From an uncultured Gammaproteobacteria bacterium (lineage in GTDB: Bacteria > Patescibacteriota > Patescibacteriia > UBA9934 > GWF2-40-263), in the NCBI GenBank assembly GCA_964471375.1, contig CAYYFM010000073.1, forward strand, positions 1-44,926: DNA of 44,926 nt, read 5' to 3'. The notes below the pieces were generated by a model. The model was not told where the DNA came from. It was given only the letters and a program-made list of their open reading frames with translations, and did not search any database. The translations under genes were made by a program, and so were the position numbers. Shown one piece after another: positions 15,657 through 29,033 of the stretch (within the stretch, counting starts at the first letter, position 1; each line of letters opens with the position of its first letter).

Positions 15657-15707
15657 AATTTAGGATTTAGAGAAAGTGACTCTATTCTATATTCTAATCC
15701 CTAAATT
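15657..15707. repeat. imperfect word hairpin (AATTTAGGATTTAG / CTAATCCCTAAATT)
   Basis: Inverted repeat between the SIMPL gene start and the stop of the upstream gene, overlapping that stop (15701-15703). Confidence 0.6.
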
Positions 15708-27200: not shown

Positions 27201-29033
27201 AGAAACAGCACCGGACAATGTGGATGCGCCTGAGACAGTGAGAGCACCAGTCACGTCTGCGCCAGCGTTTGCATCGACATTTCCAGCAAATGTGACCTGT
27301 CCGGTCGAGACGAATGAAAGTGCGCCTGTTCCAGATGTAGACAGTACAGATGATCCGATGGCAATGTCTGTTGCGGCGTCAAGCGTGAGACTGTCTGCAA
27401 ATTCAGTGAAATCAAGCGCGTCGTCGGTGATGTCGATTGTTACTGACGCGGATTCAGAGCCGGATCCAGTAACCGTCAGATCTCCAGCTCCTGCATCGGC
27501 AAATACGGCGAGATAGTTTCCCGTCGTGTCCGCTCCGAGCTCAGCCGCATTTGGTGTAAGAGTGGTTGTTCCATTTGATGCGAGGATGACATCCCCCGAG
27601 ACAGCGACGGGATTATAGTTGATGCCGTCGGCAACCAGGATAAATCCGTCTGTGTTTGTTGTGAGGAATAGATCGTCACCCGTTATTATGAGATCGCCGC
27701 CAACCGTTGTATTTCCTGCTGTTGAAAATGTAGAACCAGCTGCAACAGCGCCTGCCAACGTCGTCACGCCCGAGACGGTGAATGCGCCTGTAACATCTGC
27801 ACCATTTGTCGCATCCACATTCCCCGCAAAGGTAACCTGTCCAGTCGAAGCAAATGAAAGAGCACCTGTTCCAGAAGTAGAAAGAGTTGAGGAACCAAGA
27901 GCGACATCTGTTGAACTGTCGAGGGTCAATGCATCAGCGAGCTCAGTGAAGTCTAGCGCGTCATCAACGATATCGATAGTCACAGCCGCGTTTTCTGATC
28001 CAGATCCAGTGATAGACAAATCCCCTGCTCCTGCATCTGAAAGTGTGGCGAGATAATTTCCTGAAGTGTCACTCGCGAGGTCAACGGCATTTGATTGAAT
28101 CGTTAACACGCCCAAATCGGACAGACTTGCATCTCCTGAAACTCCGATCGGTGTGAAATCTGTTCCGTTTGCAATGAGCAGAAAGCCTGATGTGTTTATT
28201 CCCATGGAGAGATTGTTTCCACTGATAGTGATGTCACCTGTTACGGTGAGATCAGAACCTGTTGTGACGACACCCGACAATGTTGATGATCCAGAAACAG
28301 AAAGGGATGCAAAGCTCGCGAGATCTGAAACAAAATCTCCGGCGATTGTAAGATCACCCGTTGATGTGAGTGAGTTCGTTGCATTGAAAAAATTGATTGA
28401 TCCAGTAACGCTCGATCCTTGCAATGTGAGAGAGTTGCTTCCTGTTGCGGTCACAGACGGATTCGTATCTCCAAGAACAAGTGAGCCGTCTGTAAGAACG
28501 GGAATCTGTTCGTCGACCGCCGACTGTGATGGAGTGTATCCACCAACGGAGTTGCTATTAATCGCATACCCAGAAGCACCGATACGCAATCGTGGTGAGA
28601 GTGTTTCAAATGTCACTCCTGTGCATGAACTACTAATTTGTTCAGCGACTTCGATGTTGAGATACGCTTCGTCCGTATCAAAAAAATCGAAATCGAGTGC
28701 GTCACCATCTGCAGACGTATCACCGATGCCTACTGAGTACACACCATCAACAACTTCGACGGTCATGGTGGACGGAGCACTCGATGGCCATAACGCTGTA
28801 TCAGGTGCTCCTACGACAGAGTCGCTATACATCGAAAAGCGAAAACAAAAATCTGTCCCATCACCCCCAAGTAAATTTCCTTCTCCATCAAGCAGTCTTC
28901 CTTGATGGTTTAAGATTTCGGGAACACCTGTTGCAGCAAGCAAAACAGCGGGATACCGAAGTATTCCCGTCAACACTAATATTAGACACACGAGACTTGT
29001 GATTATTCGTCTCATAGTTCGTTCGCTGACCAT
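21255..29033 (-). CDS. giant repetitive secreted fibre/adhesin-like protein (2592 aa)
   Basis: Uninterrupted 7.8-kb ORF with:
- a signal peptide
- six ~200-aa A modules (..GDDLFMATNTSGFILVADGTNYNPVAISGD..TGNYLATLSDAGSGD..DDALDFTELADSLTLD..)
- two full and one divergent ~270-aa B modules
- a Cys-containing distal domain
- a phage-tailspike-chaperone-like segment
- an acidic tail
An alternative start is ATG 29015 (MRRIITS). Confidence 0.85.
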   Translation of the reverse strand: MVSERTMRRIITSLVCLILVLTGILRYPAVLLAATGVPEILNHQGRLLDGEGNLLGGDGTDFCFRFSMYSDSVVGAPDTALWPSSAPSTMTVEVVDGVYSVGIGDTSADGDALDFDFFDTDEAYLNIEVAEQISSSCTGVTFETLSPRLRIGASGYAINSNSVGGYTPSQSAVDEQIPVLTDGSLVLGDTNPSVTATGSNSLTLQGSSVTGSINFFNATNSLTSTGDLTIAGDFVSDLASFASLSVSGSSTLSGVVTTGSDLTVTGDITISGNNLSMGINTSGFLLIANGTDFTPIGVSGDASLSDLGVLTIQSNAVDLASDTSGNYLATLSDAGAGDLSITGSGSENAAVTIDIVDDALDFTELADALTLDSSTDVALGSSTLSTSGTGALSFASTGQVTFAGNVDATNGADVTGAFTVSGVTTLAGAVAAGSTFSTAGNTTVGGDLIITGDDLFLTTNTDGFILVADGINYNPVAVSGDVILASNGTTTLTPNAAELGADTTGNYLAVFADAGAGDLTVTGSGSESASVTIDITDDALDFTEFADSLTLDAATDIAIGSSVLSTSGTGALSFVSTGQVTFAGNVDANAGADVTGALTVSGASTLSGAVSAGSTLSVSGASTLSSVSVSGESTLTGAVSTGSTLSTTGNTTVGGDLTVTGDDLFMATNTSGFILVADGTNYNPVAISGDISFSSTGATTIDANSVALGTDSTGNYLATLSDAGSGDISISGSGSETAAVTVDIVDDALDFTELADSLTLDAATNIALGSVALSTSGTGALSFASTGQVTFAGNVDANSGLDVTGALTVSTTSTLSGAVSVGSTLGVTGATTLSSTASVAGALAANGGITFDNSTDTLGAHTLAGTLDANTNLLTNIGDSGTDFVSGGGITFAGHVTLSSDSSEGLSGGGLSDCDTASTSKLMWDATTNKFSCGSDQNSGSATAFDVIGDPSGNGAVAMNETVQTLDWNTASTAAAFDGLTYTITNDGSTDATSQRLFVLQNANSTGSTNTERLLVLDNADTDEAVTTALEISSAAGAITTAIDASDSDIVTALAIGSNDITTTSTTISATELDRLDGKDAALLDTNDAVSTAITGVGTLSSISVSGTSTLTGAVSIGSTLSTTGNTTVGGDVTISGDDLFMATNTSGFILVADGTNYNPVAISGDMTISSTGAVTIGSNSIALGTDTTGNYLATLSDAGSGDISISGSGSETAAVTIDIVDDALDFTELADSLTLDAATNIALGSVALSTSGTGALSFASTGQVTFAGNVDANSGFDVTGALTVSTTSTLSGAVTAGSTLGVTGATTLSSTLAVAGTSTLTGAVSIGSTLSTTGNATIGGDVTISGDDLFMATNTSGFILVADGTNYNPVAISGDISISSTGATTIGSNSIALGTDTTGNYLATLSDAGSGDISISGSGSETAAVTVDIVDDALDFTELADSLTLDAATAIVLGSATLSTSGTGALSFASTGQVTFAGNVDANSGVDVTGALTVSTTTSLSGAVSAGSTLGVTGATTLSSTASVAGALAANGGITFDNSTDTLGAHTLSGTLDANTNLLTNIGDSGTDFVSGGGITFAGHVTLSSDSSEGLSGGGLSDCDTASSSKLMWDASTNKFSCGSDQTSSTATTFDAIGDPSGNGAVAMAETVQTLDWNTASTAAVFDGMTYTITNDSSTDSTSQRLFILQNANTTGSSATERLFVLDNADTNEAVTTALEISSAAGAITTAIDATDSDIVTALAIGSNDITTTSTTISATELDRLDGKDATLLDTNDAVSTAITGLGTLSTLTTSGNATIGGDVTISGDDLFMATNTSGFILVADGTNYNPVAISGDMTISSAGAVTIGSNSIALGTDTTGNYLATLSDAGSGDISISGSGSETAAVTVDIVDDALDFTELGDTLTLDAALSISGSASRTIDWSRTLTNATAENAMTISTIATDTTSATSSQFGLYVDNVASTEALDASIVLDNSDTDDVVGTAIKIIDAGGGFTSVIDNAGTLISGAELNRLDGKDAALVDQNDLTASDGSGATSSGSGLETGTGGIGLIQGCADGDILTWNDSSAVWQCGPNGAADTATFTDTTTELASFTTAADIWDGTFPNITVNTATATVLIAVNIRGTSDDANDQNPVFTIRRAQNSNPTCSSTQVGGEFVGDFLTANSEDWGASATFVDTGAFSASDNVRYTICTTTTGLDDGNTDEIRVSLVELGADLAENYYTTDDSIGPGDVVELDPSIPAGVKKASSPYNKNVIGVVSTAPGIILDDATGIGYGRAVPVALAGRIPVMVSTENGVVKAGDLLTSSSEPGVAMKATQAGQIIGQAMQDYGYNETQGLISMFIKTDFYNGTSSDQTTLDLTDLALVDGITFQTTGKFLHGILVDSIGSLSDLIAIQNDTIFFGRPYFNADMGGFARVSFGDRMVRVEFEDEYLDQPVVTASLTIESSDGSSVTAQTEQAFFNSGLSFIVTDKNTTGFTILLNRSAPADLLFSWTALAIRDARTEYSESGGHEEIRPSNDLQEIEEIEKIQVVEDIIPVIASETKQSSESEEEMTEEIAAPSARNDTEEEIDTSLSTELVESIEVPYVEIIETEIVE
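21351..21434. repeat. inverted pair of CATTGCGAG..GCAATC hairpin units (third small-repeat family)
   Basis: GTCATTGCGAGccgaaggcgcgGCAATC (21351-21378) and GATTGCttcgtttcaCTCGCAATGAC (21409-21434). Read in frame in the giant gene as VIASETKQSSES..EEIAAPSARNDT. Confidence 0.8.
23300..28300. repeat. high-identity internal tandem repeats of the giant gene
   Basis: The antisense shadow ORFs 23581-24831 and 25597-26889 translate almost identically. Strings such as GATCCTGCGTCGGAAAGCGTTGCGAGATA recur at about 24800, 25430 and 26860. The super-repeat period is about 2.0-2.06 kb and the A-module spacing about 0.6 kb. Confidence 0.9.

Follow-up and report, generated by a model that had tools for sequence, protein, structure and literature searches.

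Contig CAYYFM010000073.1 of assembly GCA_964471375.1, deposited as an uncultured Gammaproteobacteria bacterium, was analyzed over its entire length of 44,926 nucleotides (44.9 kb; hereafter referred to as the window). It contains a cluster of seven open reading frames (ORFs), all on the minus strand, which encode, in this order, a giant fibre protein (giant), a small membrane protein, a secreted adaptor ending in a dockerin (dock), three membrane anchors with cohesin modules (cohA, cohB and cohC) and an integral membrane protein of the DUF475/TerC family (Table 1). The cohesin–dockerin cassette at the center of this cluster is the subject of the present study. An earlier note, made from the sequence alone, had described the seven genes as an operon, and the positions of all ORFs, overlaps and gaps were reproduced exactly. 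Overlaps exist between the genes for giant and the small protein (35 nucleotides, nt), the small protein and dock (4 nt), cohA and cohB (31 nt) and cohB and cohC (4 nt), while 9 nt separate dock from cohA and 3 nt separate cohC from the DUF475/TerC gene. Hydropathy profiles reveal an N-terminal leader in giant, dock, cohB and cohC, which is missing from cohA, as well as an N-terminal transmembrane helix in the small protein and a C-terminal one in each of the three cohesin anchors.

Table 1. Features of the cohesin–dockerin gene cluster and its upstream region, given as positions in the 44.9-kb window (aa, amino acids).
Feature	Position	Strand	Length	Remarks
Giant (fibre protein)	21255-29033	-	2592 aa	
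Giant aa 2212-2345	21999-22400	-		Barrel related to the C-terminal auto-chaperone domain of phi29 gp12
Giant aa 2408-2494	21552-21812	-		Second conserved C-terminal beta domain (FFGRPYF...GFxIxLNKPAP...FxWxALA)
Giant aa 2500-2592	21258-21536	-		Acidic low-complexity tail; Pro/Thr/Glu-rich tails in orthologs
Small protein	20864-21289	-	141 aa	Length from ATG; TTG at 21376 would give 170 aa
dock (dockerin protein, secreted adaptor)	19782-20867	-	361 aa	
Dockerin module, dock aa 302-361	19785-19964	-		Two near-identical segments, DINCDAKISLLDFSIIAFWY and LNGDGKIDLIDFSIMAFYW, at the extreme C-terminus
cohA (short-tailed cohesin anchor)	18945-19772	-	275 aa	
cohB (long-tailed cohesin anchor)	17926-18975	-	349 aa	
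cohC (long-tailed cohesin anchor)	16631-17929	-	432 aa	
DUF475/TerC-family integral membrane protein	15701-16627	-	308 aa	
Terminator-like hairpin followed by T7	29063-29080	-		7-bp stem with 3 GC pairs, TTTTTTTGTT tail
TATAAT hexamer	29032-29037	-		Overlaps the annotated ATG of giant (29033-29031)

The three cohesin anchors are paralogous type-I membrane proteins, each presenting one N-terminal cohesin module on a stalk of linker and beta domains that is held by a C-terminal transmembrane helix. The earlier note had proposed such membrane-tethered cohesin modules, and Pfam (for cohB), paralogy, the fold match of cohC and hydropathy all agree with it. The Pfam family Cohesin (PF00963) matches cohB above its curated threshold (28.6 bits, compared to a cutoff of 24.1). 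cohA and cohC show no direct match to PF00963, and both are homologous to cohB, which shares 47% identity with cohC over the module (E 9e-42) and 32% identity with cohA (E 2e-14). Within the family at large, 25 of 45 members match PF00963, with a best E-value of 5.6e-9. Since a profile of the cohesin family failed to retrieve any cohesin from the PDB by sequence, cohC was modelled and its fold shown by structure. The AlphaFold2 model has a mean predicted local distance difference test score (pLDDT) of 84.5, which rises to ~96 within the cohesin module (aa 28-161). This region is predicted to adopt the nine-stranded beta-sandwich (jelly-roll) fold of cohesins. When this model was compared with the PDB using Foldseek, nearly all of the top 50 matches were solved cohesins, including cell-anchoring and non-cellulosomal ones, with TM-scores (TMt) of 0.72-0.77 and root mean square deviations (rmsd) of 2.6-3.3 Å over ~148 columns (e.g., 6kgf_C at 0.75, 2xdh at 0.77 and 1aoh at 0.76), at a sequence identity of just 11-20%.

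The anchors differ in the regions that follow the cohesin module. In cohA, the module (aa 1-125) leads into an OmpL47-like beta domain, a transmembrane helix (aa 251-270) and a basic tail of 5 aa. cohB starts with a leader and continues with the cohesin module (aa 50-185), a linker rich in Thr, Pro and Glu, a transmembrane helix (aa 263-285) and a cytoplasmic helical tail of 64 aa, while cohC combines a leader and the cohesin module with a second beta domain (aa 189-274), a transmembrane helix (aa 329-351) and, on the cytoplasmic side, a helical hairpin of 81 aa. The same division is seen among their relatives. Members of the cohA-type family (n=71; median length 304 aa) possess a C-terminal transmembrane helix in 70 cases and a tail of ~7 basic residues. 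Those of the cohB/C-type family (n=95; median length 489 aa) usually contain extra Big_13 Ig-like domains and, with a transmembrane helix in 92 cases, end in a cytoplasmic tail with a median length of 85 aa (interquartile range 61-86). An alignment of 74 of these tails yields the consensus …KExxEAExxLHKAFxxLREDxxxQIxxLEKxKxKRxLTxEExxIxxxLKKDLxxAEKxIxKEIxDIEKExK. The motif that the earlier note had picked out behind the transmembrane helix of the two longer paralogs corresponds to its LHKAFxxLRED core and is hence family-wide; like the terminal 'IL' reported with it, it was found in both cohB and cohC. The tail has no counterpart in Pfam or the PDB. In the cohC model, it is predicted to form a helix (aa 320-395) that is continuous with the transmembrane helix, followed by a second helix (aa 400-431).

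Two peculiarities of individual anchor genes may be mentioned here. Beside the cohA/cohB overlap, 3.7 tandem copies of a 15-nt unit (92% matches; window 18879-18933, minus strand) encode RFLAT three times in the n-region of the cohB leader. In a related locus (L014:6871-9471), an ORF of 866 aa joins a protein of the cohA type in frame to one of the cohC type, giving the order cohesin, transmembrane helix, leader-like transmembrane helix, cohesin, transmembrane helix and tail, which is either a Rosetta-stone fusion or the product of a frameshift error.

The second partner, dock, consists of a leader (aa 1-22), a head (aa 23-80) that contains three S-x-x-F motifs, a stretch of 20 Gly residues (aa 92-111), two immunoglobulin (Ig)-like domains (aa 122-301) and the C-terminal dockerin. 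The first dockerin segment reads D306-x-N308-x-D310-x-x-I-x-x-x-D317, followed by FSIIAFWY, and the second N342-G-D344-G-K-I-D-L-I-D351, followed by FSIMAFYW. Both are invariant or nearly so in the family alignment, from which two tandem segments of ~22 residues are predicted, each comprising an EF-hand-like Ca2+ loop and a helix. Among the close relatives of dock, 28 of 30 match Dockerin_1 (PF00404) at E<=0.01 (best 4.4e-9), and the dock family profile matches the solved dockerin 2y3n_B (E 1.5e-4 over 57 positions). The canonical duplicated dockerin described in the earlier note is supported by the visible duplication and by these relatives, although the window copy itself scores below the Pfam threshold; together with the above-threshold score of cohB, the profile searches suggested there as a check thus speak for both types of modules. 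The dockerin ends at the last residue of the protein in 83 of 88 matches, and the leader of dock places it at the terminus of a protein predicted to be secreted.

The C-terminal ~240 aa of the dock family are almost invariant and comprise the poly-Gly run, two Big_6-type Ig domains (Big_6 being detected in 28 of the 30 relatives) and a dockerin ending in …DFSIMAYYWTG. The heads, by contrast, vary, containing three S-x-x-F motifs, to which an fn3 domain may be added, or a Cys-rich CGNGxxExGEQCD sequence, or simply being longer. We analyzed 84 related loci (the best 80 and four taken from assemblies) and found exactly one dockerin ORF in 82 of them, as in the window. A search of the 60-aa dockerin against 1.84 billion representative proteins returned 195 clusters at E<=1e-10, nearly all of them composed of 300-500-aa proteins that carry the module at their very end. 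This restriction points to a single dedicated adaptor family rather than a cellulosome-like set of enzymes. In one locus (L051:2034-9425), three consecutive upstream proteins of 752-877 aa each end in a weaker dockerin (~25 bits), so that, to judge from these sequences, the cargo itself may dock in some genomes.

A scan of one genome per species identified a relative of dock in at least 565 species genomes, apparently all of them Patescibacteria. The homologs recovered number 203 for cohB and more than 1129 for dock, and all named ones are from Patescibacteria, in line with the earlier suggestion that the organism is CPR-like (Candidate Phyla Radiation). The credible record names are of the Parcubacteria type and include Magasanik-, Uhr-, Falkow-, Komeili-, Veblen-, Zambryski-, Wolfe-, Portnoy-, Campbell-, Colwell- and Taylorbacteria as well as Paceibacterota and Minisyncoccia; one locus (L053) is that of the co-cultured Ca. 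Microsyncoccus archaeolyticus. Several cassette-bearing records (L005, L011, L013, L017, L024 and L031) have TPA_asm titles such as 'uncultured Gammaproteobacteria', 'Planctomycetia' or 'Methylomirabilis', and these taxonomic labels are probably wrong.

Seventy of the 84 loci include enough downstream sequence to be assessed. At least two cohesin genes directly follow dock on the same strand in 68 of them, and the clean order dock > cohA-type > cohB/C-type is seen in 60, a recurrence that goes beyond chance and answers the call for a synteny check in the earlier note. The median gap between dock and cohA is 5 nt, and the two cohesin genes overlap by a median of 28 nt, values that the window resembles. 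The triple-cohesin array highlighted in the earlier note exists in the window, but two cohesin genes, one short-tailed and one long-tailed, are the norm (58 of 70 loci), with three found in only 10. The conserved core is a triad made up of dock, a short-tailed and a long-tailed cohesin anchor.

That cohA has no signal peptide, as previously remarked, is true of the window and atypical of the family, since 61 of 71 cohA orthologs possess one. The cohA ATG lies 9 nt past the TAA of dock in the same reading frame (…YWTG*PYL-MSTFYF…; window 19772-19787), and the predicted protein starts at the position of the mature N-terminus of its orthologs, with the leader-coding segment missing. Leader-less cohA genes also occur in L023:4604-5389, L066:6141-6944 and L068:7362-8114, where they start within ~25 nt of the dock stop codon and, in L068 only, in frame with dock. 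The window gene is thus an instance of a recurrent variant, and a one-off assembly error was rejected on these grounds. A reassigned stop codon or a dock–cohA fusion is unsupported as well, given that the in-frame stop is TAA and that all three stop codons terminate ORFs in the window; moreover, none of the dock homologs is long enough to represent such a fusion.

Upstream of the triad, the window encodes giant, which is rich in Thr (15%), Ser (13%), Gly (11%), Ala (11%) and Asp (9%). Its leader (aa 1-33) is followed by six A repeats of ~190 aa and 2.5 B repeats of ~270 aa, in a layout that includes a 686-aa super-repeat whose copies (aa 441-1126 and 1126-1812; window 22968-28247) are 77-90% identical. 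The number of copies may vary, or repeats may have been collapsed during assembly. The C-terminal region includes a barrel homologous to that of phi29 gp12. A profile of 21 orthologs aligns with 3gqh_A from the first residue of the chain (DFAEYF ~ DLAENY; E 0.025), and AlphaFold2 models of the C-terminal domains reach pLDDT values >90 both at the barrel and at the second beta domain. The best Foldseek match of the barrel model in the PDB is 3suc, the pre-mature form of gp12 (E 3.5e-4), while searches of BFVD returned phage proteins at E ~1e-10, with 30-34% identity and an rmsd of ~2.2 Å, including a 'preneck appendage protein barrel'. The analogy to gp12 suggests that giant trimerizes into a tailspike-like fibre, from which self-cleavage may release the barrel. 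Pfam searches of giant gave no match to a beta-helix or Peptidase_G2 family, and giant lacks a C-terminal transmembrane helix. Orthologous giants of 785-3114 aa are found upstream of the triad in 23 loci.

The small protein is bitopic, with a basic N-terminus, a transmembrane helix (aa 17-35) and a conserved C-terminal domain of ~80 aa. Its family comprises 39 members in 33 loci, always located between giant and dock, and a profile built from 37 of them had no match in Pfam or the PDB.

Giant and the small protein define one of two subtypes of loci. Type 1, to which the window belongs, contains, in this order, giant, sometimes a gene of the Beta-lactamase2 family, the small protein and a dock with a Cys-poor head. 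The Beta-lactamase2-family gene (PF13354, 1.6e-35; L027:8401-9411) lies between giant and the small protein in ~10 type-1 loci and is absent from the window. Type-2 loci encode a large protein of the DUF2341/LamG type together with one or two secreted, beta-rich proteins and a dock whose head is Cys-rich. The gene preceding dock in these loci specifies a leader-bearing, C-terminally transmembrane-anchored protein with a weak resemblance to the WxLIP peptidoglycan-binding domain (E 0.014; 15.8 bits, compared to a cutoff of 27.3). Examples are L003:2510-8020 and L016:1-3182, with beta-rich secreted proteins that end in …AGSYTxxLTYxxTxTF. Head type and upstream type are strongly associated (30/2 against 1/19; Fisher p = 5e-11). 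The coupling of the cohesin array to a fibre, as previously put forward, is consistent with the position of giant and the small protein next to the triad in the window but confined to one of the two subtypes.

The last gene of the operon is a bona fide member of the DUF475/TerC family (Pfam DUF475, PF04332, 5.3e-44; NCBIfam equivalog NF010612, 444.9 bits compared to a cutoff of 386), as proposed before. Lying immediately behind cohC, it is probably co-transcribed with it in the window. Its inclusion in the system was, however, rejected, because it is absent from the vicinity of the cluster in all 84 related loci, which makes it an unrelated neighbor. Glycosyltransferase and SIMPL neighbors likewise do not co-occur with the cluster in the related loci. 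Searches of PHROGs and NCBIfam returned nothing informative for the cohesin–dockerin cluster.

At its other end, the operon is bounded by the hairpin listed in Table 1, which closes an upstream glycosyltransferase gene. Of the two upstream signals reported earlier, hairpin and TATAAT hexamer, both are present, but the hexamer overlaps the annotated giant start codon. It lacks a properly spaced -35 element, and a promoter scan reported no sigma-70-type site at 29037-29032. If the hexamer is nevertheless a -10 box, the actual start of giant would be Met7 (ATG at 29015). A start at this position yields a leader (MRR…) that looks more typical, and it would agree with a near-leaderless transcript. 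The genes flanking the operon have housekeeping functions and encode methionyl-tRNA synthetase, an M17 peptidase, a penicillin-binding protein (PBP), a Mur ligase and ribosomal protein L10. Elsewhere, the window contains a 292-aa ORF with a weak match to IS200-like Y1 transposases (E 6e-4; 36178-37056), situated between rplJ and the Mur ligase/PBP genes, a 697-aa ORF without Pfam match (32535-34628) and a gene for a protein of 407 aa that matches a bacterial TSP3 repeat below threshold (40084-41307).

Collectively, we consider it probable, although well short of certain, that the genes described here specify a non-cellulosomal cohesin–dockerin system, found across the Patescibacteria, that anchors a structure to the cell surface. 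The pairing would seem to be dedicated, judging from the single dockerin ORF per locus and the cohesin genes directly downstream of it. In the proposed mechanism, the dockerin would plug into the cohesins in a Ca2+-dependent manner on the outside of the membrane or wall. Its two equivalent faces may enable a single dockerin to bind a short-tailed and a long-tailed anchor at once. Such a 1:2 dockerin:cohesin complex is speculative, yet it is made plausible by the constant pairing of a short and a long anchor with one symmetric dockerin and by the in-frame fusion in L014, with its consistent topology of three transmembrane helices. The adaptor would thereby be fixed to the membrane, with the hinge and the Ig stalk projecting its head through the wall. 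Because head type co-varies with the upstream genes, the adaptor probably couples the anchor to the structure that these genes encode; in the window, this structure would be the repetitive 2592-aa fibre, which comes with the small bitopic membrane protein. The assembly would be likely to attach the cell to surfaces or to host cells, or to bring it into contact with them.

Several observations weigh against this interpretation. The window dockerin reaches only 20.2 bits against Dockerin_1, below the cutoff of 22.9, and its second loop has no acidic residue at the first Ca ligand position. The sequence-level search of the PDB with the cohesin family profile returned just Ig-like SiiE domains. 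With cohA lacking a signal peptide, one of the three putative sockets may stay off the surface. Furthermore, giant has no dockerin, and nothing directly ties it to the dock adaptor. Finally, the co-variation of head and cargo is confounded by phylogeny, as the subtypes largely follow lineages.

Some of these points bear on the most serious alternative, namely that the triad is an autonomous display system in which the variable head of the adaptor acts as an adhesin or ligand-binding tip, with giant and the small protein being independent and sharing nothing but the operon. We regard this scenario as unlikely but worth keeping in mind: the triad occurs without a recognizable giant or small-protein gene in many loci, 15 of which have neither cargo type, the lack of a dockerin in giant agrees with it, and the heads are diverse (S-x-x-F, fn3, Cys-rich). 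It is at odds with the fact that head type tracks the type of the upstream genes. In addition, the overlaps of the giant, small-protein and dock genes suggest coupled expression, and the window head, with just ~58 aa, is small for an adhesin.

It is considerably less probable that there is no pairing between the two types of modules, with the cohesin folds serving as generic beta-sandwich spacers or binding modules for glycans, wall components or host ligands and the EF-hand pair as a Ca2+-dependent structural or wall-binding element. The sub-threshold score of the window dockerin, the low identity to solved cohesins and the missing sequence-level match in the PDB speak for this reading. Against it stand the near-universal adjacency of the genes, with a one-to-two stoichiometry in 68 of 70 loci, the extreme conservation of the dockerin next to a variable head and the fact that the fold matches are specifically to dockerin-binding cohesins. 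A role of the membrane proteins as a fibre assembly or secretion platform similar to those of pilus biogenesis, with the hairpin recruiting cytoplasmic factors and only transient cohesin–dockerin contacts, could account for the conserved cytoplasmic tail and for the weakly WxLIP-like and small beta-rich secreted proteins of type-2 loci, which resemble fibre subunits or chaperones, but is highly improbable given that the loci lack a conserved gene for an ATPase, a secretin or a sortase, that the anchors have a single transmembrane helix and that known cohesin–dockerin pairs, as established for cellulosomes, are stable anchors. A prophage or phage tail-fibre module was rejected in view of the housekeeping flanks, the chromosomal synteny in hundreds of genomes and the absence of dock-family relatives from IMG/VR.

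Much of bacterial diversity belongs to the Patescibacteria (CPR), the majority of which are thought to live attached to other cells. To our knowledge, very little is known about their attachment machinery beyond type IV pili. An anchoring system based on cohesin–dockerin contacts would make the cassette a candidate for how CPR cells mount surface structures, with a near-invariant plug, paired sockets and a swappable head and cargo. In a bolder version, which we consider rather doubtful, CPR bacteria of the Parcubacteria type would use the triad as the conserved base of their principal organelle for attachment to hosts or surfaces, with the symmetric dockerin bridging a short-tailed and a long-tailed anchor into a heterotrimeric membrane socket that holds a phage-tailspike-like fibre, and with the conserved cytoplasmic hairpin relaying engagement or load through the membrane or positioning the complex from the cytoplasmic side. 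Were this true, it would represent a transmembrane use of cohesin–dockerin pairs not described in any organism. The co-culture with Ca. Microsyncoccus archaeolyticus provides a cultivated carrier in which these ideas are testable. In addition, the short and highly conserved dockerin–cohesin pair could become an orthogonal tag for protein assembly.

The searchable literature on cohesins and dockerins in CPR, Patescibacteria, Parcubacteria and cultured Minisyncoccaceae does not describe the cassette, nor does it describe anchoring by a transmembrane helix and cytoplasmic tail, a single dedicated adaptor or a link to tailspike-like giants in CPR; the accessible part of a transcriptome paper on Minisyncoccaceae does not mention the cassette either. 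The earlier impression of an undescribed system therefore appears to be correct, although NCBI labels some of the family proteins 'cohesin domain-containing' or 'dockerin type I repeat-containing'.

Parts of the system do resemble known ones. The giant barrel is similar in both profile and fold to the phi29 gp12 pre-neck appendage, with the match beginning at the first residue of the released gp12 fragment, whereas giant as a whole is a cellular, leader-bearing protein of 2592 aa with long Thr/Ser/Gly-rich repeats. A likeness to the WxL/WxLIP clusters of Firmicutes is limited to type-2 loci, and thus does not extend to the window: these loci place a weakly WxLIP-like protein beside small beta-rich secreted proteins, but the WxLIP match is far below threshold, and no WxL domains were found.

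The closest functional parallel is offered by the anchoring scaffoldins of cellulosomes (Clostridium thermocellum SdbA, OlpB and Orf2p; Ruminococcus flavefaciens ScaE), in which, as proposed here, a cell-bound cohesin captures the C-terminal dockerin of a secreted partner. Consistent with this parallel, the cohC model superposes on the OlpA/OlpC cohesins 3ul4 and 4dh2 (TMt 0.68-0.75). Scaffoldins are usually anchored by SLH (S-layer homology) domains or sortase. Here, by contrast, anchoring involves a C-terminal transmembrane helix and a conserved cytoplasmic tail, each protein has one cohesin, each locus encodes one dedicated dockerin protein, and the hosts are non-cellulolytic CPR bacteria. 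The Pfam scan detected no carbohydrate-active enzyme, carbohydrate-binding module or SLH domain, and the other Pfam domains of dock proteins are just Ig-like or fn3. With neither a multi-cohesin scaffoldin nor attachment by SLH domains or sortase, the system is not a cellulosome.

Cohesins and dockerins are also known outside cellulosomes. The best Foldseek match of cohC is 2w1n, a cohesin-FN3 construct of Clostridium perfringens GH84C (E 2.4e-11), and the cohesin 2xdh, for which a TMt of 0.77 is given above, is that of Archaeoglobus fulgidus. The non-cellulosomal pairs of C. perfringens, comprising GH84C and related toxin/glycosidase complexes, and of A. fulgidus link soluble enzymes or sit in single proteins. 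The Patescibacteria, in contrast, possess membrane-anchored cohesin paralogs with a cytoplasmic tail, encoded in a three-gene cassette of fixed make-up that is conserved across at least 565 species genomes, which would extend the biology of cohesin–dockerin pairs to a membrane-integrated form.

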